A DNA stretch of 40,464 bases from a virus (Duplodnaviria; Heunggongvirae; Uroviricota; Caudoviricetes): the IMG/VR virus record IMGVR_UViG_643348545_000008, positions 1-40,464 of that record. One strand, written 5' to 3'. The notes under the pieces are model-generated. The model had not been told where the DNA came from. It worked only from the letters and a program-made list of their open reading frames with translations, and made no database searches. The translations under genes and the position numbers were made by a program. How positions within the stretch are numbered: position 1 is the stretch's first letter; each line of letters begins with the position of its first letter. This document shows positions 1 to 37,539 of this stretch, piece by piece.

Positions 1-1131
1 TCAAATGACCAGTTTTTTCCATTCCTTACCGCGTGCGTCGTTGTAAATATCGGTCATTTTTTGATGCGAATGGCCTAGCAAAATTTTGGTATCAACCCCC
101 TGCTCTCTGAACAATCGCTCTGATAAAGATCTCTGCTCATGGAAAGAGGGAGGGGTGCCATTAGCACGCCAGTTGTAATCCACAGAATCCCGGGCTTTTT
201 TAAATGCAACGGTTAATGTTGCTGGCTTAACCATCCCGCCGCGCTTAGCTGTCCCTTTCGCGTGATGGTGGTGCAATAGCCACGGACTAAGAACGCAATC
301 GCGGCAGGATGACACCACATCATCCAGGGTGAGATTTAATTTATCGCAACGCAGAGCCAGAGGGATGGCAATCCGGGTTCCTGTTTTTTGCTGTTCGACA
401 TGAAGATAACCATCCCGGATATCCGAAAATTGCATTTTGCAAATATCTGAAAGGCGCTGGCCTGTCATCAGTGCCAGCAGCATACCGCGCTGTAAAAAGT
501 AACCATCCTTTTCCGCTGCGTTATAAATCATCATCCACTCATCAAAAGTCAGTCGCTGTCTTGATATCCGCACCTGCGGTTTTTTTGCCGATTCTGCAGG
601 GTTAAAGCCTGGCGGGACATCGCCCGTTTGCTGAGCTTCCCGGAAAACATCGATCAGTACTTTCCTGAAAATTTGTCCCATTCTGTTATGTCCTCTGGCC
701 TTGTACTCTTCCAGTACTGATACCACATCTTTTACGGTTATGGCATCTAACGGTCTGGTGCCAAAACGTTCATCAAATACCCTGAGAGGGGCCGCTTTCT
801 GTTTCAGCGTGTTGAGTTTGATCTCGCCGTTTTCATATCTTTCCTGTTGAATTTTTCTGTAATTATTCAGAAAAATGGTAACGGTTGATGAACCGCCGGT
901 ATCACTAATAATTTTCTCCTGCAGACTGAGCATTTGTTCCATTTGCTGCCGGGCAAGACGGCTGTTCGCTTCTGCTGCAATAGTTTCTGCCAGTTTCTGG
1001 TCAATACTGCCGAGACCGTGATTTTTGCCTGTTATGGGATGCCTGTAACGCCAGTAAACTTTGTTATTTCTTTTGTCAAAATACGGAGATAATCCCGGAA
1101 CATCGGTTTTATATTTTCGCGGGCGCGCCAT
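1..1131 (-). CDS. int: Phage tyrosine integrase (376 aa)
   Basis: Full-length minus-strand ORF ending at the window edge. Carries tyrosine-recombinase motifs (TGQRLSDI box; LLGHSHQKMTDIY near the C-terminus). Sits next to an Xis-like gene. Confidence 0.85.
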   Translation of the reverse strand: MARPRKYKTDVPGLSPYFDKRNNKVYWRYRHPITGKNHGLGSIDQKLAETIAAEANSRLARQQMEQMLSLQEKIISDTGGSSTVTIFLNNYRKIQQERYENGEIKLNTLKQKAAPLRVFDERFGTRPLDAITVKDVVSVLEEYKARGHNRMGQIFRKVLIDVFREAQQTGDVPPGFNPAESAKKPQVRISRQRLTFDEWMMIYNAAEKDGYFLQRGMLLALMTGQRLSDICKMQFSDIRDGYLHVEQQKTGTRIAIPLALRCDKLNLTLDDVVSSCRDCVLSPWLLHHHHAKGTAKRGGMVKPATLTVAFKKARDSVDYNWRANGTPPSFHEQRSLSERLFREQGVDTKILLGHSHQKMTDIYNDARGKEWKKLVI

Positions 1132-1357
1132 CTTCCAGTATCCTCTTCAAAGCAGGGTGATCTGTGGCGATCACCTCCGGCTTGTTTACCATTCCGACAA
1201 AGCGAGCTTGCGGATCCACTCGCCAGCGTCTTCCAACTTTTTTGGGGAGAGGAAATATCATTCCGGCTTTAGCGTATTTACTTAACGTACTCGGAGTTGG
1301 GACCGGTTCACTGAATTCCTCTTTTGCCCACTCAGTGAGCAGAATAAGTCTTGCCAT
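1109..1357 (-). CDS. xis: Excisionase (Xis-like, 82 aa)
   Basis: Small basic protein directly upstream of and overlapping the int start. LTEWAKEE...IFPLPKKVGRRWRV pattern resembles lambda Xis (LQEWNARQ...IFPPPVKDGREY). Confidence 0.6.
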   Translation of the reverse strand: MARLILLTEWAKEEFSEPVPTPSTLSKYAKAGMIFPLPKKVGRRWRVDPQARFVGMVNKPEVIATDHPALKRILEDGAPAKI

Positions 1358-1421
1358 GAGCGTCGTTCGCTAATCATGGTCGCCGCCACTATAGCTGGTG
1401 GGCAACGACCGGGGTTGAACA

Positions 1422-1766
1422 TTAAAAATCAGCCTGATTCGGGATCAGTTTTTGCCAGATAACTGAAACGTATTTTGCCTGGTAACGGGCGTCATCAAGT
1501 GCATTATGGCGCTCACCTTCGAATGGAATAGCCGTTCTGGCATCGAAGTCTATGGCTTTCCCCAGCTCAACGATTGTGCGTACATCGCGATCGTTGTAGT
1601 AACGCCACGGGCAGGGGATCCCCTGCCGTTCGTATGAACGGCGCAAAATCGTGTTGTCGAAGTTGGCTCCATTTCCCCAGACCTGAACAAAAAATTCACC
1701 GGAGTTTTCGTCGATAAATTCCCGCAATTGTAACAGTGCATCATCTAACGGGATTTCATCGGTCAT
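1422..1766 (-). pseudogene. 3'-5' exonuclease (DEDDh/DnaQ-like), N-terminally truncated fragment
   Basis: The 114-aa ORF has Exo II-like (NGANFDNTIL) and Exo III-like (HNALDDARY) motifs but no Exo I (DxE) segment. Its first codon lies 2 bp from the IS1 end, so the 5' part appears to be missing. Confidence 0.55.
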
Positions 1767-1783
1767 AAGGTAATGACTCCAAC

Positions 1784-2287
1784 TTACTGATAGTGTTTTA
1801 TGTTCAGATAATGCCCGATGACCTTGTCATGCAGCTCCACCGATTTTGAGAACGACAGTGACTTCCGTCCCAGCCTTGCCAGATGTTGTCTCAGATTCAG
1901 ATTATGTCGCTCAATGCGCTGAGTGTAACGCTTGCTGATAACGTGCAGCTTTCCCTTCAGGCGTGATTCATACAGCGGCCAGCCATCCGTCATCCATACC
2001 ACGACCTCAAAGGCCGACAGCAGGCTCAGAAGACGCTCCAGTGTGGCCAGAGTGCGTTCACCGGAGACGTGCGCCACAACAGTCCTCCGTATCCTGTCAT
2101 ACGCGTAAAACAGCCAGCGCTGACGTGATTTAGCACCGACGTAGCCCCACTGTTCGTCCATTTCAGCGCAGACAATCACATCACTGCCCGGTTGTATGCG
2201 CGAGGTTACCGACTGCGGCCTGAGTTTTTTAAGTGACGTAAAACCGTGTTGAGGCCAACGCCCATAATGCGTGCACTGGCGCGACAT
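1784..2287 (-). CDS. insB: IS1 InsB transposase frame (167 aa ORF; expressed as InsAB' by frameshift)
   Basis: Protein matches IS1 InsB. It overlaps the insA 3' end as in IS1. Confidence 0.9.
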
Positions 2288-2481
2288 CCGACGCCATTCA
2301 TGGCCATATCAATGATTTTCTGGTGCGTACCGGGCTGAGAGGCGGTGTAAGTGAACTGTAGTTGCCATGTTTTACGGCAATGAGAGCAGAGATAGCGCTG
2401 ATGTCCGGCAGTGCTTTTGCCGTTACGCACCACGCCTTCAGTAGCGGAGCAGGAAGGACATCTGATGGAAATGGAAGCCAC
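2206..2481 (-). CDS. insA: IS1 InsA (91 aa)
   Basis: Protein [43 protein letters not shown] matches IS1 InsA. Confidence 0.9.
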
Positions 2482-2632
2482 GCAAGCACCTTAAAATCAC
2501 CATCATACACTAAATCAGTAAGTTGGCAGCATTACCCGACGCCTGATGAAATACATGACGAAGCAAAAGATATTTTCTTTAACTACTGCAATTACTCATA
2601 TCACGAAATAAAAGACGAAGAGGAAGAGCAAA

Positions 2633-2809
2633 ATGGCTGATTTTGGTTCAACTAAATACAACGTCAGTTTTGAAGCATGGCATGAACTGTTAATGGACTA
2701 TGCAGAGTTACGTGGTGGCAGTGCTGCTGATGCTGAAGCATGGCGTGATGATTATGAAGCAGGAAAAACTCCGGTCGAAGCATATTGTGATGAGTGGGGC
2801 GATGAATGA
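2633..2809 (+). CDS. Hypothetical small acidic protein (58 aa)
   Basis: ATG preceded by a gaggaagag RBS. Its stop overlaps the next start (ATGA coupling). Confidence 0.45.
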   Translation: MADFGSTKYNVSFEAWHELLMDYAELRGGSAADAEAWRDDYEAGKTPVEAYCDEWGDE

Positions 2810-3321
2810 GCGAGATTAATTATCAGGAAGGGCATGAAACGGCAGGGCAGGCAAAACCAGTTGCATGGCGATATCGCTACGTGAAAAAAGACGTTACAGA
2901 CTTTCAGGGGAAGCCGTGGGCTGGTGACTGGAAATATGTACCGACAAAAGAGGATTGTAACGACAGGCCGAACTATGAAATTCAGGCCTTATTCATCGGC
3001 CCGCCAGTCCCGGTGACATCAGAAGGACTGGTTAAAGCCGTGCGCTTTTATGAACAGGTAAAGCGTGAGAATCCGCCAGTCGAAACAGGAGCATGGAAGG
3101 ATGCTGTTGACTGGGTGCTCAGAGAGGCCTGCTGCGCTGCCATTCTGGGTAAAGCCGACAATCCACCAGCATCCGGCAATCAGGTTAGCGAATTAACAAT
3201 GTGGGTTAAACGACTGGTCAGTCAACTGAAAAAAGCTCAGCCGGACTGCAAATTACCGGAGAAGGCGATGGATTACCTGAAACGAAATGGACTGATAAGC
3301 GTGGAGGATGTTTTACGATGA
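2806..3321 (+). CDS. Hypothetical prophage protein (171 aa)
   Basis: Long ORF translationally coupled to the upstream small ORF. No family recognised. Confidence 0.55.
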   Translation: MSEINYQEGHETAGQAKPVAWRYRYVKKDVTDFQGKPWAGDWKYVPTKEDCNDRPNYEIQALFIGPPVPVTSEGLVKAVRFYEQVKRENPPVETGAWKDAVDWVLREACCAAILGKADNPPASGNQVSELTMWVKRLVSQLKKAQPDCKLPEKAMDYLKRNGLISVEDVLR

Positions 3322-3441
3322 ATATTTAGACTAAAGAGTTTGTAACGCTATGTAAGTGATTTTTTCTGGTTTAGATATTTATATGTCCGGCCAAATTGAG
3401 GTGTGTTTAAATGTTATTGCACATTGATTGTAGGGGGAATA

Positions 3442-3621
3442 ATGAAAAACGCATTGCAGTTTTTGTTTGTTGCGTTCTGGTTGTTCGCATCATGTATGCC
3501 CATCATCTTCACAGCAAGGTATATGGAAAAAATTGATGTTTTGATATTAATGTTTGGACATATAAATGCCCTTTTTTTAGGGGTGTTCATGGCGGTCATG
3601 TGCATTGAATACTGGCGGTAA
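3442..3621 (+). CDS. Small hydrophobic membrane protein (59 aa)
   Basis: Internal ATG preceded by an agggggaa RBS. Two predicted hydrophobic helices. AT-rich gene with an AT-rich upstream region. Confidence 0.35.
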   Translation: MKNALQFLFVAFWLFASCMPIIFTARYMEKIDVLILMFGHINALFLGVFMAVMCIEYWR

Positions 3622-3879
3622 ATACAGCGAACGCCATTGGTTTAGTTGGATATTTACTGTGCCGGACAAAAACGGTTTGCGGGGAAATCTTAGTTAAGTA
3701 GAATAACTGCGGGTGCTTGAGGCTATCTGTCTCAGGCATGAACACCAAAAGGCAGATAGAGAAAAGCCCCAGTTAACATTACGCGTCCTGCAAGACGCTT
3801 AACATTAATCTGAGGCCATATCTATGCGACACATAGAGATTAGCCTCTTACGGACCGAAAGGTCAAGGAGAAGCAGGCT

Positions 3880-4035
3880 ATGAAGCAGCAAAAGGCGATG
3901 TTAATCGCCCTGATCGTCATCTGTTTAACCGTCATAGTGACGGCACTGGTAACGAGGAAAGACCTCTGCGAGGTACGAATCCGAACCGGCCAGACGGAGG
4001 TCGCTGTCTTCACAGCTTACGAACCTGAGGAGTAA
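3880..4035 (+). CDS. hok: Hok/Gef-family type I toxin (51 aa)
   Basis: MKQQKAMLIALIVICLTVIVTALVTRKDLCEVRIRTGQTEVAVFTAYEPEE is a clear Hok/Gef family sequence. A short upstream ORF ends at ATGA overlapping the start. A terminator follows. Confidence 0.85.
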   Translation: MKQQKAMLIALIVICLTVIVTALVTRKDLCEVRIRTGQTEVAVFTAYEPEE

Positions 4036-4105
4036 GAGACCCGGCGAGGGATAAATCCCTCGCCACCTCTGATGTGGCAGGCATCCTCAACGCACCCGCA
4101 CTTAA

Positions 4106-4130
4106 CCCGCTTCGGCGGGTTTTTGTTTTT
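4106..4130 (+). terminator. Intrinsic terminator of the hok transcript
   Basis: cccgc-ttcg-gcggg hairpin followed by tttttgttttt. Confidence 0.6.
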
Positions 4131-4251
4131 ATTTTCAACGCGTTTGAAGTTCTGGACGGTGCCGGAATAGAATCAAAAATACTTAAGTAGCGCGCAGGGA
4201 TAAGAGGGATGGTCCCTTAAAGGGGAGAGCTAATTATCCGGAAGGATTCTG

Positions 4252-4503
4252 ATGATGAACATCGAAGAACTGCGTAAAATTTTTTGTGAAGATGGCCTCT
4301 ATGCTGTGTGCGTTGAAAATGGAAACATTGTTAGTCATTACCGCATTCTGTGTTTGCGAAAGAATGGGGCTGCGTTAATTAATTTTGTGGATGCTCGGGT
4401 CACGGACGGATTTATCTTGCGCGAAGGTGAGTTTGTCACTTCATTACAGGCACTGAAAGAGATCGGAATAAAAGCAGGCTTTTCAGCTTTTGCAGAAGAA
4501 TAA
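4252..4503 (+). CDS. Hypothetical protein (83 aa)
   Basis: ORF with a ggaagga RBS. No family recognised. Confidence 0.45.
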   Translation: MMNIEELRKIFCEDGLYAVCVENGNIVSHYRILCLRKNGAALINFVDARVTDGFILREGEFVTSLQALKEIGIKAGFSAFAEE

Positions 4504-4569
4504 ACTCATCTACAATCTTGCGCGGGGCTGAACTCCCGCTGAGTAACACCGTGCCACCGGAGAAAACCG

Positions 4570-4848
4570 ATGGCACGCAACGTAAAATATTACAAACATG
4601 ATAATTCGACCGTTCTTGCCCACACGCACGAGCGGTATTCTCACGCATTCAAGTCTGAATGGTTCCAGCACCCTCCATGCACTGAAGAGCAGGCTGAATG
4701 GATAATTCAGTGTTACCGCAGGCGCGGATACGAGGTTAAGAAAGCCCTTAGTCTCGACTACCGTCACTGGATAATCTCAGTCAGGCTTCCTTACTCCGAA
4801 CGCCCACCGCGTCTGTCCCGCACATTCCAGCAACGCATCTGGAGGTAA
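4570..4848 (+). CDS. Hypothetical protein (92 aa)
   Basis: ORF with a ggagaaa RBS. No family recognised. Confidence 0.45.
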   Translation: MARNVKYYKHDNSTVLAHTHERYSHAFKSEWFQHPPCTEEQAEWIIQCYRRRGYEVKKALSLDYRHWIISVRLPYSERPPRLSRTFQQRIWR

Positions 4849-4849
4849 C

Positions 4850-5899
4850 GTGCGGGTATTACTTCGACCTGTTCTGGTACCGGAACTCGGGCTGGTGATC
4901 GTTAAGCCGGGCCGTGAATCCATGCCGGTATTCCACAATACCCGGGTACTGGTGGAGCCGGAACCGAAAAGCATGCGTAATCTGCCGTCCGGGGTCGTTC
5001 CTGCCGTTCGCCAGCCGCTGGCGGAGGATAAATCATTACTGCCATTTTTCAGCGACGAACGAGTGATTCGTGCTGCTGGTGGCGCTGGCGCATTGTCTGA
5101 CTGGTTACTGCGGCATGTTAAATCCTGCCAGTGGCCACACGGCGATTATCACCACAGTGAAACCGTCATTCACCGTTATGGTACCGGCGCAATGGTGTTG
5201 TGCTGGCACTGCGACAACCAGCTGCGTGACCAGACATCCGAATCACTCGAGCAACTTGCTCATCAAAACCTGTCAGCATGGATGATTGACGTCATCGGTC
5301 ACGCAATAAGCGGTACGCAGGAGCGTGAATTATCTCTGGCTGAATTATCCTGGTGGGCGGTCCGCAATCAGGTGGCGGACGCGCTACCGGAAGCGGTATT
5401 ACGTCGTTCGCTGGGGTTGCGTGCGGAAAAAATCCGCTCAATGTACCGTGAAAGCGACATCGTACCGGGAGAGCAGACCGCCACCAGCATACTGAAACAG
5501 CGCACAAAAAATCTTGCGCCGCTGCCTCACGCCCACCAGCAACAGAACCCACCACAGGAAAAGACGGTGGTCAGCATTGCCGTTGATCCTGAGTCTCCGG
5601 AATCTTTCATGAAACGACCTAAACGTCGCCGCTGGGTTAACGAGAAATACAAACGCTGGGTGAAGACACAGCCGTGTGCGTGTTGTGGTCAGCCAGCCGA
5701 CGATCCCCATCACCTGATTGGTCACGGTCAGGGAGGGATGGGAACAAAGGCCCACGATATTTTCACGCTACCGTTGTGCCGGGAACATCACAACGAACTT
5801 CATGCGGATCCGCTGGCGTTCGAAGAAAAGCATGGTTCTCAGGTTGATTTAATTTTTCGTTTTCTTGATCACGCCTTTGCAACTGGCGTGCTTGGGTAA
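4850..5899 (+). CDS. Nin-region protein, DUF968/YdfU-like, with C-terminal Cys/His HNH-like motif (349 aa)
   Basis: GTG start preceded by a ggaggt RBS. C-terminal CACCGQ...HHLIGHGQGG...CREHHNELH motif. Position immediately upstream of rusA is typical of lambdoid nin regions. The family name is recalled, not searched. Confidence 0.6.
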   Translation: MRVLLRPVLVPELGLVIVKPGRESMPVFHNTRVLVEPEPKSMRNLPSGVVPAVRQPLAEDKSLLPFFSDERVIRAAGGAGALSDWLLRHVKSCQWPHGDYHHSETVIHRYGTGAMVLCWHCDNQLRDQTSESLEQLAHQNLSAWMIDVIGHAISGTQERELSLAELSWWAVRNQVADALPEAVLRRSLGLRAEKIRSMYRESDIVPGEQTATSILKQRTKNLAPLPHAHQQQNPPQEKTVVSIAVDPESPESFMKRPKRRRWVNEKYKRWVKTQPCACCGQPADDPHHLIGHGQGGMGTKAHDIFTLPLCREHHNELHADPLAFEEKHGSQVDLIFRFLDHAFATGVLG

Positions 5900-5911
5900 A
5901 AGAGGTGACTG

Positions 5912-6286
5912 ATGCTCATAGATTTGGTTTTACCTTACCCGCCGACGGTGAACACTTACTGGCGACGCCGTGGCAGCACATATTTTGTATCAAAAGCCGG
6001 GGAGCGTTATCGCCGGGCAGTGGCGCTTATTGTTCGCCAGCAGCGCTTGAAATTAAGCCTGTCCGGACGGTTGGCAATAAAAATTATTGCAGAACCACCG
6101 GATAAGCGCCGCCGTGACCTGGACAATATTCTGAAAGCGCCGCTGGATGCGCTGACGCATGCGGGGTTGCTAATGGACGATGAGCAGTTTGATGAAATCA
6201 ATATCGTTCGTGCTCAGCCAGTATCTGGTGGACGTCTGGGGGTGAAGATTTACCCCATAATGCTTGAAGGGCAGGTCAAAAAATGA
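5912..6286 (+). CDS. rusA: Holliday junction resolvase RusA (124 aa)
   Basis: PYPPTVNTYWRRRG ... RRRDLDNILKAPLDAL ... GGRLGVKI are characteristic RusA motifs. Located just upstream of Q. Confidence 0.85.
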   Translation: MLIDLVLPYPPTVNTYWRRRGSTYFVSKAGERYRRAVALIVRQQRLKLSLSGRLAIKIIAEPPDKRRRDLDNILKAPLDALTHAGLLMDDEQFDEINIVRAQPVSGGRLGVKIYPIMLEGQVKK

Positions 6287-7104
6287 AACTGGAAGATTTA
6301 CCGAAATACTACTCCCCAAAATCCCCCGGCCTGACTGATGCATCGGCCTCAACGTCGAAAGATGCGCTGAGTATCACTGATGTGATGGCCGCGCAGGGCA
6401 TGACACAGAATCGGGCTGAGATGGGGTTTTCTGCGTTCCTGGGGAAAATGGGCATTAGTATGAATGACAGAGAGCGGGCAACAGAATTGCTGACAGAATA
6501 TGCACTCAGTCGGTGCGATCGTGTGGCGGCGTTGAGAAAACTTCCGGCAGAAATAAAACCGGTAGTGATGCGCATTATGGCTTCGTACGCTTTTGAGGAT
6601 TATGCCCGCAGCGCAGCGAGTAAAAAGCAGTGCCCCTGTTGCCGAGGGGAAAAATTTATTGAAGGCGAAGTTTTTACAAACAAGGTTCAGTATCCGGATG
6701 GCAAGCCGCCAGTATGGGCAAAGTGTACGAAAGGTGTGTATCCGTCTTACTGGGAAGAATGGAAAAAAATTCGGGAGGTGGTGAAAGTTTCTTGTCCTGA
6801 ATGTAAAGGGAAGGGGGAGATTTCCACTGCCTGTAAAGACTGCCGTGGGCGTGGTGTCGCCATTCATCGTGAAGAGTCGGTAAAACGTGGTATGCCTGTT
6901 ATCAGAGACTGCCAGCGTTGTGGTGGTCGTGGCTGTGAAAGACTACCATCAACGGAGGCATTTAATGCCATACGCAAAGTGACGAGTGCTATCACGCTTG
7001 ATACGTGGAAAAAATCAGTGAAACGCTTTTACGATACGTTGGTGGTTCGGTTTGACATTGAAGAGGCATGGGCGGAGCGGCAGTTAAAGAGGGTAACGCG
7101 ATAG
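6283..7104 (+). CDS. Late-gene antiterminator Q (Qin/phage-82-type, 273 aa)
   Basis: Overlaps the rusA stop (ATGA). Multiple CxxC zinc-finger pairs and an MKLEDLPKYYSPK N-terminus like QuuQ-type antiterminators. Followed by a promoter-terminator pair. Confidence 0.75.
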   Translation: MKLEDLPKYYSPKSPGLTDASASTSKDALSITDVMAAQGMTQNRAEMGFSAFLGKMGISMNDRERATELLTEYALSRCDRVAALRKLPAEIKPVVMRIMASYAFEDYARSAASKKQCPCCRGEKFIEGEVFTNKVQYPDGKPPVWAKCTKGVYPSYWEEWKKIREVVKVSCPECKGKGEISTACKDCRGRGVAIHREESVKRGMPVIRDCQRCGGRGCERLPSTEAFNAIRKVTSAITLDTWKKSVKRFYDTLVVRFDIEEAWAERQLKRVTR

Positions 7105-7678: not shown

Positions 7679-8737
7679 ATGCTTAATACTGTAAAAATAT
7701 CCAGTTGTGAGTTAATCAACGCCGACTGCCTGGAATTTATCCGGTCGTTACCCGAAAATTCTGTTGACCTGATAGTCACGGACCCGCCGTACTTTAAAGT
7801 GAAGCCTGAGGGCTGGGATAACCAGTGGAAGGGCGACGATGATTACCTGAAATGGCTGGACCAGTGTCTGGCGCAGTTCTGGCGGGTGCTGAAACCTGCC
7901 GGAAGTCTTTACCTGTTCTGTGGCCATCGCCTGGCGTCTGACATTGAAATCATGATGCGTGAACGCTTCAATGTGCTGAACCATATTATCTGGGCGAAGC
8001 CGTCCGGACGCTGGAACGGGTGCAACAAGGAAAGCCTGAGGGCATATTTCCCCGCCACAGAGCGCATTCTGTTCGCGGAACATTATCAGGGGCCGTATCG
8101 CCCGAAAGATGCCGGGTATGAGGCGAAGGGCAGGGCACTGAAACAGCATGTGATGGCCCCGCTGATTTCTTACTTTCGTGATGCGCGTGCTGCCCTGGGG
8201 ATAACGGCAAAACAGATTGCTGATGCCACAGGAAAGAAAAACATGGTGTCGCACTGGTTCAGTGCCAGCCAGTGGCAGCTACCGGACGAAAGCGATTATC
8301 TGAAATTACAGGCGCTGTTTGCCCGGGTGGCAGAAGAGAAGCATCAGCGCGGAGAACTGGAAAAGCCACATCACCAACTGGTCAGCACATACAGTGAACT
8401 GAACCGGTAGTATACGGAACTGCAGAGTGAATATAAGCATCTGCGGCGGTATTTTGGTGTGACGGTGCAGGTGCCGTACACCGATGTGTGGACGCATAAA
8501 CCGGTGCAGTACTATCCCGGGAAACATCCGTGCGAAAAACCGGCAGAAATGCTGCAGCAGATAATCAGCGCGAGCAGTCGTCCGGGTGACCTGGTTGCAG
8601 ATTTCTTCATGGGGTCAGGTTCGACAGTCAAAGCAGCGATAGCGCTGGGACGTCGTGCAACTGGCGTTGAGCTGGAGACTGAGCGTTTTGAGCAGACGGT
8701 CAGGGAAGTTCAGAATTTAGTCAGTCAGAACGGATGA
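7679..8737 (+). pseudogene. DNA methyltransferase (N6-adenine/N4-cytosine type) interrupted by one in-frame amber codon at 8408..8410
   Basis: ORFs 7679..8410 (DPPY motif) and 8459..8737 (FFMGSGST SAM-binding motif) are in the same frame. Only one TAG separates them and the 16 codons in between are open. Confidence 0.6.
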
Positions 8738-8777
8738 TATTGCAGAATTAGTTACGTACCGTTATTATCCTATGCCC

Positions 8778-8853
8778 GGCCCTTTAGCTCAGTGGTGAGA
8801 GCGAGCGACTCATAATCGCCAGGTCGCTGGTTCAAATCCAGCAAGGGCCACCA
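8778..8853 (+). tRNA. tRNA with CAT anticodon, closest to E. coli tRNA-Ile2 (ileX/ileY-like; formally Met/Ile)
   Basis: 76-nt cloverleaf with GGCCCTT/AAGGGCC acceptor stem, anticodon loop CTCATAA, TTCAAAT T-loop and encoded CCA. Confidence 0.8.
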
Positions 8854-8862
8854 TATCACATA

Positions 8863-8939
8863 CCGCCATTAGCTCATCGGGATAGAGCGCCAGCCTTCGA
8901 AGCTGGCTGCGCGGGGTTCGAGTCCTCGATGGCGGTCCA
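8863..8939 (+). tRNA. tRNA-Arg (anticodon TCG)
   Basis: 77-nt cloverleaf with CCGCCAT/ATGGCGG acceptor stem, anticodon loop CTTCGAA, TTCGAGT T-loop and encoded CCA. The discriminator base is unusual. Confidence 0.7.
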
Positions 8940-9217
8940 TTATCTGCATTATGCGTTGTTGGTTCTGATGAGTGAATCATTGTCTTTTGAGCAACAGGCT
9001 ATCATATAAGATAGCCTCAGACTTCCTTGTTTATTCTCGCCGGATGCTTCGTAGATATTTGCAGGCATCTGTATGCAGGGGTATTATTGCGGCATATATC
9101 ATCCGGAAAAATAAAAACTACATGCTGATCCGGAGATGATAGTTACAAGTCCTCCCGGATCCCGCATATTTACTATATTTTATAGATAATTGTTCTTGTT
9201 AATATGGAGATGGATAA

Positions 9218-9646
9218 ATGTATTGCCGTGCTGTACCAGTTCTTGTTTTGATATTAGCCAGTCTGACAACTGGCTGCACAAAAGATGTATCGACAAATAA
9301 TTATGATGCTTCTCTGTATCACTCAGATAAATTAATAAAGTCGCAAAATTTGAGCTCATCGGAACGTACCCCTGATGCCAGTGAAGAAATCAGGCAGTAT
9401 GCCATTCAGGTCAGGAAAGCCATAGAAGAACAGTTAAAGGATGCGAGTAAGTATTCAGGAAAAGAGTGTTCACTGAGAATGTATATGGCCCCGAATGGTC
9501 TTCTGCTACAGGTTAAAAGAGAAAGCGGTGATCCCGATTTATGTCGTGAAGCGATGAATGCAGTAAAGAATGCTGATATACCATCACCACCGTCTTCAGG
9601 AGTATATAAAGCATTTAGAAATGGCGTGCTGGATTTTAAACTCTGA
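9218..9646 (+). CDS. Lipoprotein with TolA C-terminal (domain III)-like domain (142 aa)
   Basis: Signal peptide with lipobox-like LTTGC. Residues 55-142 align by eye with E. coli TolA domain III (GKECSLRMYMAPNGLLLQVKRESGDPDLC...IPSPPSSGVYKAFRNGVLDFK versus GKTCTLRIKLAPDGMLLDIKPEGGDPALC...IPKPPSQAVYEVFKNAPLDFK). ggag RBS. Confidence 0.7.
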   Translation: MYCRAVPVLVLILASLTTGCTKDVSTNNYDASLYHSDKLIKSQNLSSSERTPDASEEIRQYAIQVRKAIEEQLKDASKYSGKECSLRMYMAPNGLLLQVKRESGDPDLCREAMNAVKNADIPSPPSSGVYKAFRNGVLDFKL

Positions 9647-10171
9647 CAGGGGGAGAAGATTTTCTCCTGTCCTGATGATTTTGGGGCGCTGGAAAGATAT
9701 TGTGCTGTGAAGTGTTAAATTCCTCACAATTCAGTAAGTTGACAGTTGCCTGTCAGACTGAGCATTTGTTAAAAAAATTTCGCATGGTGAATCCCCCTGT
9801 GCGGAGGGGCGACTGGTGAACGGTATGATCTCTTTGATGATCGTAAGCGAGAATATGCGGGTTTAGTGTCACCGGGCTGAACTCACCGGGAGGCACCCGG
9901 CACCATGCAATGGCACATAGCGCCACTCTCCAGCCCCTCTCCGGAGGGGCTTTCTTGTGGGCAAAAAAAAAGCCCGAGTGGGTTCGGGCAACAGCATGAG
10001 ATATACATTTTTATAATCGAATGGATTTTAACCAGAATTCATAAGGCTGCGCAACTGCGCGGCCTTTTTCGTATTGCGGGCTGTAGTCTTCCTCCTGCCA
10101 TTGTCCTGTAACTTCCGGACTTCAGCCCGCCCCTCATCTGACTCACAACATTATCCCGACCGGGAGGATTC

Positions 10172-30967: not shown

Positions 30968-31301
30968 GATAAAAACGCTGCATCTGGTCCCGCGTGAAGG
31001 GATGCAGGTGAGTGAGAAACCGTCGGTGGTGAGGGTCCGGTTTGGTGACGGTTATGAACAGCGCCGACCGACGGGACTGAATGCCCAACTGAAGACGTTT
31101 CAGGCGGTGTTCCGGGTGACGGATGAGGCGACCCGGCGCTGGCTGGATGAATTTTTATCGTGGCATGGTGGTTACCGTGCCTTTTTGTGGCGACCGCCGA
31201 AACATAACCGGACGGTGAGGGTGGTGTGCCGGGAGTGGAGTATTACGGATAACGCCAGGTACAGCGATTTCAGTTGTATGATGGAACAGGTAATAAGATA
31301 A
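30960..31301 (+). CDS. M: Minor tail protein M (113 aa)
   Basis: VRFGDGYEQRRPTGLNAQLKT ... HGGYRAFLWRPP resembles lambda gpM (VRFGDGYSQRAPAGLNANLKT ... HGGWKSFLWTPP). Confidence 0.8.
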   Translation: MAEIKTLHLVPREGMQVSEKPSVVRVRFGDGYEQRRPTGLNAQLKTFQAVFRVTDEATRRWLDEFLSWHGGYRAFLWRPPKHNRTVRVVCREWSITDNARYSDFSCMMEQVIR

Positions 31302-31507
31302 GTTTTTGAGAAAAAACCTAAAAGCATCGTTTATTAATTTGCTTGCTTGTTATTTTTGTTTTGTCTTGACATAAAGTGCTATCAAAGTTGTTTTTTTACA
31401 TTTTGAAACAAAATAAAAATTGAACCCGTAATTTAATTTACAATATTTTGAGTTTTGTTCATGACATCTCTATGCATGAATAGTTCAGTTTAAATAAGGA
31501 TTAAATC

Positions 31508-32671
31508 ATGAAAAAAATGACAGTGGCACTTTCAGCTGTGGCAGCAGCTGTAATTTTTGCAGCGGGGGCGCAGGCTGCAGAAGTATACAATAAAGATGGC
31601 AATAAACTTGATGTGTATGGGCGTGCAACTGCACTCCATTATTTCTCCAGTGATAAGGGGGATGATGGAGATAAGACATACGCACGTCTGGGCTTTAAAG
31701 GTGAAACTCAGATTAATGACCAGTTGACTGGTTTTGGTCAGTGGGAATATCAGTTCTCTGGTAATAAAGCTGAATCAGAGGGTGCTGCGGGTAATAAAAC
31801 CCGTCTTGCATTTGCAGGTCTGAAGTTTGGTGAGTTTGGCACCATTGATTATGGTCGTAACTATGGTATTGCGTACGATGTTGGTTCTTATACTGACGTA
31901 TTACCAGAGTTTGGCGGTGATGGCTGGACCCAGACCGATAACTTCATGACAGCCCGTACTTCCGGGGTATTAACCTATCGTAATACAGATTTCTTTGGGC
32001 TTGTCGATGGCCTGAATTTTGCGGCACAGTACCAGGGTAAAAATGATCGGGGTGATCTCCGGAAAGCTAATGGTGATGGTCACGGTTTCTCAGCCAGTTA
32101 TGAATATGAAGGTTTTGGTATCGTTGCCGCATATATTAATGCGGACCGAACCAATAATCAGGAAAAAGGTCTGAATGGTACTCTGACGATTGAACAAACT
32201 GATCCTTTAACCGGTAAAGTGACTGAAAAGCAGATCGTTGTTGATTCCGGTAGTGTTGCAAAAGGTAAACACGCTGAGATGTGGGGAGTCGGACTAAAAT
32301 ACGATGCTGACAACCTTTACCTGGCTACAACATATTCCGAAACTCAGAATCTGACGACCTTTGGTGATAAAGGAGTTGCAGATAAAGCGCAAAACTTTGA
32401 AGCGGTACTGCAGTATCAGTTTGATTTCGGTCTGCGTCCATCTCTGGCATTCCTGCAGTCTCGTGCTCAGGATGTCATTGTAGGTGGTAAAAACTATGGT
32501 GACCAGGATTTGGTTAAGTATGTTGACGTAGGTGCGAAATATTACTTCAATAAAAATATGTCCACCTATGTTGATTATAAAATCAATCTGGTTGATGAGA
32601 ATAAGTTTACCAGGGATGCGGGCATTGCAACGGATGATATCGTTGCTGTTGGTATGACTTATCAGTTCTGA
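31508..32671 (+). CDS. Outer-membrane general porin, OmpC/NmpC/Lc family (387 aa)
   Basis: Signal peptide ending [19 protein letters not shown]-terminus. Conserved PEFGGD and [13 protein letters not shown] motifs. C-terminal ...YQF. Confidence 0.85.
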
Positions 32672-32829
32672 TGATTACTGGTAAATAAATACAGGCCATC
32701 TGCCCTCACAGATGGCCTGTATCAGTGGAAGTTATATTTCCACTGGTCACTGCGATCAGCTATTAGCTGATTTAATTTTCATTTTATTACCTTCATCGTT
32801 TTTGATTTTTTAATTGAACTATTTTATCA

Positions 32830-32852
32830 GGGGCGCATTGCGCCCCTTTTTT
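32830..32852 (+). terminator. Intrinsic terminator at the right end of the porin insert
   Basis: ggggcgc-att-gcgcccc hairpin plus tttttt, 10 nt upstream of L. Confidence 0.55.
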
Positions 32853-32866
32853 ATGGGTGGATGTTT

Positions 32867-35073: not shown

Positions 35074-35106
35074 CAGGCATCCTCCGGGGTGCCTGTTGTT
35101 TTTTGG
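35074..35106 (+). terminator. Hairpin plus T-tract, candidate terminator just upstream of J
   Basis: caggca-(10 nt)-tgcctg followed by ttgttttttgg. Confidence 0.4.
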
Positions 35107-35147
35107 GCATAAACAGATTCAGACATCAGACAGGAGAGGGGGACAGA

Positions 35148-37539
35148 GTGGGTAAAGGTGGCGGCAAGGCACACACGCCTCGTGAGGCGAAGGATAATCT
35201 CAAATCCACGCAGATGATGAGCGTGATTGATGCCATTGGTGAGGGACCGATAGAAGGTCCGGTGAAGGGACTGCAGAGTATCCTGGTGAACAAAACCCCG
35301 CTGACGGACACGGACGGTAATCCCGTGATACACGGTGTGACCGCCGTCTGGCGTGCCGGGGAGCAGGAGCAGACACCACCGGAAGGCTTTGAGTCCTCCG
35401 GAGCTGAAACTGTACTGGGTGTGGAAGTGACGAAGGCAAAACCGGTGACACGCACCATTACGTCAGCGAACATTGACCGCCTGCGGGTGACCTTCGGGGT
35501 GCAGTCACTGGTGGAGACCACGTCAAAGGGTGACCGTAATCCGACGTCTGTCCGCCTGCTGATTCAGCTTGAGCGTGGTGGTAAATGGATGACGGAAAAG
35601 GATGTCACCATTAACGGCAAGACCACCTCGCAGTTCCTGGCGTCGGTGATTCTGGATAATCTGCCGCCCCGGCCCTTTAACATCCGGATGGTCAGGGAGA
35701 CGGCGGACAGCACCACGGACCAGCTGCAGAATAAGACGCTCTGGTCGTCATACACCGAAATCATCGATGTGAAACAGTGCTACCCGAACACGGTCATTGT
35801 GGGGCTGCAGGTGGATGCGGAGCAGTTCGGCGGCCAGCAGATGACGGTGAACTACCATATCCGTGGTCGCATCATCCAGGTGCCGTCAAACTATGACCCG
35901 GAAAAACGCACGTACAGCGGTATCTGGGACGGCAGTCTGAAACCGGCATACAGCAACAACCCGGCCTGGTGTCTGTGGGACATGCTGACTCACCCGCGCT
36001 ACGGCATGGGAAAACGCCTGGGGGCGGCGGATGTGGACAAGTGGGCGCTGTATGCCATCGGGCAGTACTGCGACCAGACGGTCCCGGATGGTTTCGGGGG
36101 CACAGAGCCGCGGATGACCTTTAATGCGTACCTGGCACAACAGCGTAAGGCATGGGACGTGCTCAGTGATTTCTGCTCGGCGGTTCCGGATTAACGCACC
36201 GGCAGCGCCTGCCGGTGTTGAACTGACGCCGGGGTATTTTCAGATAACGGCAGTCCCGCGTCTTGCGGTGTATGACCCGACGGTGCAGTTTGAGTTCTGG
36301 TTTTCGGAGGCAAAAATTGCAGACGCCGCACAGGTGGAAACCTCTGTCCGTTATCTGGGGACCGGCAGTCAGTGGAGTGTCTCCGGTCCGCACATTAAGC
36401 CCGGAAAGGATTTCTGGTTTTATGTGCGCAGCGTCAACCTGGTGGGTAAATCTGCTTTTGTGGAAGCCAGTGGACGGGCGAGCAATGATGCTGCGGGCTA
36501 TCTGGAACTTTTCCGGGAAAAGATAGGAAAACTGCATCTGGCAGAGGCGCTGTGGGCAGAGATTGACAACAGTCAGCTGAAGGACGAGATGGCGGAAATG
36601 CAGACCACCATCACCGAAACCCGCAATGAAATCACACAGACGGTCAGTAAAACGCTGGAGGACCAGAGCGCCACCATACAGCAGATACAGCGCGTGCAGA
36701 AGGACACAAATGATGACCTTGCTGCACTTTACATGCTGAAGGTACAGAAAACAAAAAATGGCATACCCTATGTTGCCGGTATTGGAGCGGGGATTGAGGA
36801 TACTGATGGCCAGCCCCTGAGCAACATACTGCTGCTGGCTGACCGTATTGCGATGATTAACCCGGAGGACGGCAACACCACGCCGTTATTTGTGGCGCAG
36901 GGGAATCAGTTGTTCATGAACGATGTGTTCCTGAAGCGACTGTTTGCGGTGAGTATCACCTCGTCCGGCAATCCCCCGACGTTTTCCCTGACGCCGGAGG
37001 GCAGGCTGACCGCAAGAAATGCTGATATCAGCGGTAACGTGAATGCGAATTCCGGGACGCTCAACAACGTCACGATTAACGAGAACTGTCGGGTTCTGGG
37101 AAAACTGTCCGCGAACCAGATTGAAGGCGATCTCGTTAAAACAGTGGGCAAAGCTTTCCCCCGGGATTCCCGTGCACCGGAGCGGTGGCCATCAGGGACC
37201 ATTACCGTCAGGGTTTATGACGATCAGCCGTTTGACCGGCAGATTGTTATTCCGGCGGTGGCATTCAGTGGCGCTAAGCATAAGAGAGAGCATACTGATA
37301 TTTACTCCTCATGCCGTCTGATAGTGCGGAAAAACGGTGCTGAAATTTATAACCGTACCGCGCTGGATAATACGCTGATTTACAGTGGCGTTATTGATAT
37401 GCCTGCCGGTCACGGTCACATGACACTGGAGTTTTCGGTGTCAGCATGGCTGGTAAATAACTGGTATCCCACAGCAAGTATCAGCGATTTGCTGGTTGTG
37501 GTGATGAAGAAAGCCACTGCAGGCATCACGATTAGCTGA
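35148..37539 (+). pseudogene. J: Central tail fibre / host-specificity protein J with internal out-of-frame deletion (N-terminal part 35148..36194, C-terminal part about 36190..37539)
   Basis: First ORF matches the lambda J N-terminus (KAHTPREAKDNLKSTQ ... [10 protein letters not shown]) then stops. A second ORF in another frame matches the J C-terminal third ([19 protein letters not shown] ... [10 protein letters not shown] ...). About 400 central residues are absent. Confidence 0.7.

Follow-up and report, generated by a model that had tools for sequence, protein, structure and literature searches.

A lambdoid prophage adjoining ompW in the chromosome of Escherichia coli ED1a (CU928162.2) has lost its immunity and replication region by a deletion, and a single intact copy of the insertion sequence (IS) IS1 lies at the deletion junction without a target-site duplication. 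The prophage was analysed in a window of 40,464 nucleotides (IMG/VR record IMGVR_UViG_643348545_000008), whose positions are converted to coordinates of the ED1a record by adding 1,395,643; a 114-aa product encoded beside the IS1 matched ED1a exactly, and the 6 kb around it were 100% identical to that chromosome. One end of the deletion, of about 9 kb, is codon 710 of an 824-codon exonuclease gene (exo), which belongs to the leftward early operon; the other is codon 27 of a DUF7167 gene, in the nin-type portion of the operon read rightward. We regard an IS1-associated deletion of the early region as very probable. The first-pass annotation of the window had proposed that an IS1 event removed the immunity and replication region and left a cryptic prophage that still carries its accessory genes (morons). 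This proposal agreed with the comparison to intact prophages, since the lost segment is present in the relative AR_0013, and the hok/sok locus, tRNAs, a TolA-like gene, an esterase, a porin and lom are kept in ED1a.

IS1 is 768 bp long; its terminal inverted repeats are imperfect, span about 23 bp and begin with GGTAATG, and its reading frames insA and insB' are connected through −1 frameshifting at an A6C motif. The element at 1769..2536 was 768 bp long, and its ends, GGTAATGACTCCAACTTACTGAT and (as reverse complement) GGTAATGCTGCCAACTTACTGAT, agreed at 20 of 23 positions. The transposase genes were on the minus strand (insA, 2206..2481, 91 aa; insB', 1784..2287, 167 aa), with the A6C frameshift motif TTAAAAAAC at 2224..2230 on the same strand in the insA/insB' overlap. 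The 232-aa product called on ED1a had Pfam matches to Zn_ribbon_InsA, HTH_Tnp_IS1 and DDE_Tnp_IS1. Identity to the IS1 copies of many E. coli genomes was 99.9% over the 768 bp; the element is the standard isoform and the only IS1 copy in the window. In a search for an outward promoter at the IS1 ends, five promoter-like sites were found around the junction versus 4.4 in shuffled sequence, and only IS1's own site (2529..2502) stood out.

The two 9-bp flanks of the element differed. The left flank (1760..1768) was cggtcataa, and the right flank (2537..2545) was cgacgcctg, agreeing at two of nine positions. No direct repeat of 5–14 bp was found within 25 bp of either IS1 end. The sequence of the corresponding sites in relatives identified both flanks as native, the left one belonging to the exonuclease gene (TTATGACCG on the coding strand) and the right one to the DUF7167 gene. 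What the missing duplication concerns is the history of this copy; its assignment to IS1 is unaffected. An 8-bp inverted match (ATTTCATC / GATGAAAT) was observed at 1753..1760 and 2545..2552, placed symmetrically 8 bp outside each IS1 end, with both arms encoding Asp-Glu-Ile in the divergent truncated genes (M-T-D-E-I and T-P-D-E-I). Coincidence is the probable explanation, as this symmetry is missing from the native partner sequences at both sites.

Both genes that abut the element are 3' remnants. To the left, the last 114 of the 824 exo codons (1422..1766, minus strand) form a pseudogene fragment that covers only positions 77–177 of the 177 positions of the Pfam Rv2179c-like domain (PF16473, a DEDD 3'-5' exonuclease). 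The D-x-E motif of the DEDD ExoI type is missing from it; in intact genes this motif (MIDLETMG) lies upstream of the break. The open reading frame (ORF) begins 2 bp from the IS1 end with an ATG that is an internal methionine of the 824-aa gene (...SREAQSAIM/TDEIPLDD). In three relatives (L003, L007 and L012), the native gene runs uninterrupted through the IS1 position (...CAATCTGCCA, TTATGACCG, ATGAAATC...) and continues past the break with tggcagattgcg. The partial domain and the continuing native gene show that the ORF is a fragment; it does not represent a shorter family in complete form. Products identical to these 114 aa are widespread (232 blocks of the genome collection), because after IS-less truncations further upstream the first ATG in frame is still this one. 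Two ompW-site prophages (L005, ~4137..4535; L006, ~2476..2874) carried such an IS-less exo truncation approximately 55 bp upstream of the ED1a break, and these prophages still hold repressor, cro and replication genes.

To the right, the remnant of the 60-codon DUF7167 gene (2537..2640, plus strand) consists of two bases of codon 27, codons 28–60 and the stop codon, and matches positions 39–60 of the 60 positions of the Pfam DUF7167 domain. It is 100% identical to residues 28–60 of the AR_0013 protein. The first 79 nt of the gene and all upstream genes of the rightward operon are gone. At the native right site, the sequence reads ...GATGATGATG, CGACGCCTG, ATGAAATAC, and in ED1a the IS1 abuts CGACGCCTG. 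A chimeric 79-aa ORF running from IS1 into the DUF7167 remnant was looked up and was carried by ED1a itself only.

Comparison with related intact prophages, which the first-pass annotation had suggested as the way to define the missing segment, gave both its extent and its content. In AR_0013 the two ED1a flanks were collinear and on the same strand, 9,040 bp apart (window position 1768 corresponds to L003 11038 and window position 2537 to L003 1997). In strain 55989 they were approximately 9.1 kb apart, as calculated from the annotation. The intervening DNA of AR_0013 encodes, from the exo side, 710 exonuclease codons, DUF1482, dicB, a hypothetical gene and DUF1391. The immunity and replication genes follow, namely a helix-turn-helix (HTH) repressor, cro, ydaT, a DnaT-like O-type gene and the gene for replication protein P. 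On the nin-type side are DUF1627, DUF977, DUF4406, an ead/Ea22-like gene, another hypothetical gene and the first 79 nt of the DUF7167 gene. Since neither the order nor the orientation of the flanks has changed from the native state, DNA was deleted here and not inverted. Given collinear flanks on the same strand, relocation of the early region to another place in the chromosome would be unlikely.

The loss was also evident from the window itself. When 23 early-region proteins of two intact relatives were searched against the 40-kb window with tblastn, only the C-terminus of the exonuclease, the C-terminus of DUF7167 and one weak match inside a capsid gene were recovered, the last of which is probably a chance match. 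Repressor, cro and O/P-type replication genes are thus absent between xis and the nin-like genes, as had been noted at first pass. An N gene, which that annotation had also listed as missing, is not expected in an early region of the Rac/Qin type. The remaining descriptive points of the annotation stood as well: the position and canonical ends of the IS1, the unlike 9-bp flanks, the exonuclease ORF without its N-terminal motif 2 bp from the element, and the flip in gene orientation at IS1, with int, xis and the exo remnant on the minus strand and the plus strand used throughout right of the element.

Two intact prophages at the ompW site, in strains DETEC-S792 and S1-CAM-02-A, shared with ED1a the integrase, the excisionase and the exo 3' end (99.3% identity over 1..1768). 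In the interval from xis to the nin-type genes, they have a complete exonuclease gene and, besides it, dicB, racR, a cro-like gene, ydaT and replication genes. Their Q, lysis, head and tail regions were collinear with those of ED1a at 95–98% identity. They differed from ED1a in having a full-length tail tip gene J and a full-length methylase gene, in carrying queH in place of the DUF7167, 58-aa and 171-aa genes, and in lacking a porin insert.

The expectation that a simple IS1 insertion leaves an 8–9-bp duplication was examined with ten further IS1 copies of E. coli, located within or next to prophages of this kind. All seven copies with contiguous flanks had a duplication: in the nin-type region of 55989 (AAAATTGAT), inside exo of TOE17 (CGGCTCTGG), in ompW of E1739 (CCGTTCATC), in int of HSP60 (TGATTCCTT), in VG12A2 (8 bp, CATCCATT), and at both copies of LR-06 (L022; 4004..4771 and 8047..8814), each with its own 9-bp duplication. 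None of the three copies with discontinuous flanks had one. In the ompW prophage of FELIX_MS533, a 549-bp exo remnant is followed by IS1 and a truncated cro-like gene. The ompW prophage of FDAARGOS_1259 has a 1,971-bp exo remnant, IS1A and then an O-like gene, with the right end upstream of the latter, and the Qin-type prophage of 23CRST051 has a 438-bp exo remnant, IS1A and then ydfV. All three resemble ED1a in the series int, xis, exo 3' remnant, IS1 and a 5'-truncated or later rightward gene, with the repressor gone and no duplication. They differ from it in their end points and in their IS1 isoforms, which were 91–92% identical to the window copy, and there is no shared ancestry of the event. 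They are independent losses of the immunity region, because both the end points and the isoforms differ. A common orientation of IS1 across the compared loci was dropped as evidence, because the search joins same-strand pieces only.

The first-pass annotation had reasoned that the missing duplication implies either an adjacent deletion or recombination between IS1 copies. Both routes fit the ED1a junction, whose flanks are native and collinear in AR_0013. We infer the order of events and the responsible enzyme from the end product. Within the IS1-associated reading, a transposase-mediated adjacent deletion from a single IS1 is favoured on parsimony, and we hold it to be about evenly balanced against all other routes taken together. 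IS1 would first have inserted into one of the two genes, exo or DUF7167, with a normal 9-bp duplication, and its transposase would then have catalysed an intramolecular transposition into the other site. Such a transposition would remove the DNA between the IS end and the new target, keep the IS and leave non-matching flanks. Missing duplications are usually attributed to adjacent deletion or to recombination between IS copies, and in a long-term evolution experiment 14 of 14 traced IS-associated deletions were adjacent deletions after a prior insertion (PMC11708052).

Junctions and precursors were searched in 5,426 complete E. coli genomes, an annotated collection that does not include ED1a; because ED1a lies outside it, no complete genome there holds the whole junction. 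Neither the exact left nor the exact right junction was found in these genomes, and near matches were in two pieces with different spacing, from other IS1 insertions nearby. The left junction was shared exactly by two other independent assemblies (L008 and L009), both of which are drafts that break inside IS1. The exact 34-mer of the right junction had no match in collections of metagenome, viral or species-representative genomes (0 in each). In the literature, nothing specific was found on ED1a, IS1 and a prophage together.

Several points weigh against the favoured explanation. The final structure is identical for an adjacent deletion, for recombination of two direct IS1 copies and for two-sided deletions. 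Synthetic junctions representing the simple-insertion precursors, either IS1 in exo with a cggtcataa duplication (GCATTACC-CGGTCATAA-TGGCAGATTGCG) or IS1 in DUF7167 with a cgacgcctg duplication (GATGATGATG-CGACGCCTG-GGTAATGACTCC), had no single-piece match in the complete genomes, and the order of events is undocumented for this reason. The right junction was found in the ED1a assembly only. Exactly how long the lost segment was and what it contained are estimated from mosaic relatives, because no single relative joins the left and right arms of ED1a.

The closest competitor, to which we assign a clearly lower though still substantial probability, is homologous recombination between two IS1 copies. 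Two IS1 elements of one isoform would have inserted independently in direct orientation, the exo copy flanked by a cggtcataa duplication and the DUF7167 copy by a cgacgcctg duplication. RecA-dependent recombination between them would then have deleted the 9 kb together with one IS1. The predicted product, one intact IS1 with a flank from each site, is the observed one, and from sequence the two routes cannot be told apart. Such recombination is described as a frequent cause of missing duplications (PMC11708052), and IS1 is abundant in E. coli, at a median of approximately 11 places per genome. A direct IS1 pair bracketing exo to dicB, each copy with a 9-bp duplication, occurs in LR-06; in this Qin-type prophage the pair encloses exo, ydfD and dicB and is a natural substrate for a deletion by IS1–IS1 recombination. 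Against this route, it needs two independent insertions in the same orientation within 9 kb, where an adjacent deletion needs one, and none of the complete genomes had an IS1 at either exact site. The ED1a copy also bore no signature of a hybrid IS1, being full length and 99.9% identical to the common isoform; this was set aside as uninformative, since two identical parents would leave no such signature.

A history in which IS1 landed within the early region and successive adjacent deletions removed DNA on both sides, or in which IS1 was captured at the break of a deletion not its own, appears improbable. There are documented cases of adjacent deletions growing stepwise beside a resident IS, and it has been hypothesized in print that an IS can insert at breaks (PMC11708052). 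The region is also lost without an IS, as deletions of the same layout in NCTC9066 (exo'/DUF977') and in the K-12 prophage DLP12 (exoD'/peaD') show. Either version nevertheless calls for additional steps or for a mechanism still to be established, and nothing in the ED1a sequence favours it over a single adjacent deletion.

It is far less probable still that the junction is an assembly artefact, with two IS1 copies and the early region between them collapsed into one copy. The restriction of the right junction to the ED1a record and the breaks inside IS1 in the two drafts with the same left junction would suit such a collapse. However, CU928162.2 is a finished chromosome, its IS1 is full length and uninterrupted without a hint of collapse in the sequence, and a like structure with other end points is present in the three other complete genomes described above. 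Finally, a simple insertion into a pre-existing exo'/DUF7167' junction whose duplication later decayed by point mutation is effectively refuted: IS-less deletions of this region exist, yet seven of nine positions would have to be lost, and each 9-bp flank agrees exactly with its native counterpart in relatives, one in exo and the other in DUF7167, so that a decayed repeat has no place.

The classical IS1-promoted adjacent deletions, in the gal region, were reportedly described by Reif and Saedler in 1975. The gal-region deletions and the IS-associated deletions of the evolution experiment (PMC11708052) resemble that of ED1a in the intact IS at the junction, the lack of a duplication, the new flank or flanks and the kilobase-scale loss. 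They differ in that the ED1a event is deduced from its end product in a natural isolate. DLP12 offers a second parallel. There, intD, xisD' and a 264-bp 3' fragment of exoD on one strand abut the 5'-truncated replication gene peaD'; ren, nin-type genes, rusA and Q come next, on the opposite strand. The immunity region is missing in its entirety, and DLP12 retains accessory genes. Unlike in ED1a, no IS is present at the exo'/peaD' junction, and the IS3 of DLP12 is a separate simple insertion in renD. DLP12 also has another integrase and attachment site (argU), and its exonuclease family may differ. The exo'/DUF977' junction of NCTC9066 likewise contained no IS.

Outside the deleted segment, much of the prophage is retained. 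The window begins at the stop codon of the integrase gene and ends at a tail-fibre-associated gene, attR lying outside it; the neighbouring ompW was seen in two records (L004 and L015). A search for an att core within the window gave short chance matches only. An 11-bp inverted repeat (AAAACTGGTCA / TGACCAGTTTT) followed by a T run was observed around the integrase stop codon, in window 1..20 and the adjacent ED1a DNA (L004 11767..11777). The repeat has the appearance of the ompW terminator, which would overlap the 3' end of the integrase gene and possibly the att region. The lambda-type integrase (1..1131, minus strand, 376 aa) was full length, with Pfam Arm-DNA-bind_1 and Phage_integrase domains and the same length in all relatives, and the 82-aa excisionase (1109..1357, minus strand) matched Pfam Exc (E=1.3e-7). 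Pfam matches and collinearity with DETEC-S792 confirmed that the integrase, excisionase, Q antiterminator, lysis and head genes are present. The surviving distal part of the rightward early operon (2633..7104, plus strand), which was collinear with AR_0013 at 97.9% identity, lacks its upstream pR-type region. It contains a 58-aa ORF, a 171-aa ORF, sok/hok (3711..4035), rem, a 92-aa ORF, DUF968, rusA and the antiterminator gene Q (6283..7104).

The deletion at IS1 is not the sole lesion, as a DNA methylase gene and the tail tip gene J are also broken. The methylase pseudogene (7679..8737, plus strand) differed at 2 of 1,059 nt from the intact 352-aa gene of DETEC-S792. Codon 244 is changed from CAG (Gln) to TAG (stop at 8408..8410), which divides the gene into ORFs of 243 aa and 92 aa with halves of the Pfam N6_N4_Mtase domain. 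Aligned to the J gene of DETEC-S792, J (35103..37539, plus strand) has an internal out-of-frame deletion of 1,082 bp, with the junction at 36182/36183, and its Pfam GpJ domains are spread over two overlapping ORFs. No obvious microhomology was seen at this junction. The lesion in J alone would prevent the formation of infectious particles.

The accessory genes and RNAs kept in the prophage are sok/hok, two tRNAs, a gene for a protein with a TolA C-terminal domain, the small RNAs (sRNAs) STnc100 and AsxR, a SASA esterase, a porin and lom. Downstream of Q (8778..10019) are tRNA-Met(cat), annotated as tRNA-Ile in relatives, and tRNA-Arg, followed by the 142-aa TolA C-terminal-domain protein (9218..9646), the STnc100 sRNA (9753..9962) and the anti-stx2 sRNA AsxR (9967..10019, minus strand). 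We take this to be the position at which Stx phages carry their toxin genes. Between tail genes M and L, an insert (31292..32866; ORF 31508..32671) encodes a 387-aa porin of the OmpC/NmpC type (Pfam Porin_1, E=1.8e-139), which is not found at this position in DETEC-S792. Two ORFs (454 aa and 407 aa) that overlap at an ATGA make up the portal region (22158..24742), which has internal repeats at approximately 23710..24276. The portal of DETEC-S792 is annotated as a single 915-aa protein, and that of S1-CAM-02-A as frameshifted.

A prophage without an immunity switch, without a replication origin and replication genes, and without the early promoters that feed Q or int-xis would not be inducible, and the deletion would account for a lack of inducibility in the ED1a prophage. 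With J and the methylase gene broken as well, this prophage would be a remnant that is fixed and decaying, and of its genes only accessory ones with their own promoters could matter. It should be annotated as a defective remnant, and the exo and DUF7167 ORFs beside IS1 as pseudogene fragments. An IS1-marked deletion that makes a lambdoid prophage non-inducible is a known, recurrent kind of event. The result is useful for annotation and unsurprising, as both the class of mechanism and the outcome are textbook, and it opens no new question. It adds one documented case, and three parallel ones, of IS1 marking the loss of the immunity region in Rac/Qin-type prophages. Like layouts were seen in four independent IS1-bounded cases and in at least two IS-less cases. 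We tentatively raise the possibility, which we consider rather doubtful, that loss of the immunity and early-left region, with the break in exo and with int-xis and the late and accessory genes kept, is a recurrent, selected route of domestication in E. coli and not neutral decay, with IS1 as its commonest agent. If so, selection would probably have favoured getting rid of inducibility and of toxic early genes, dicB being one example.

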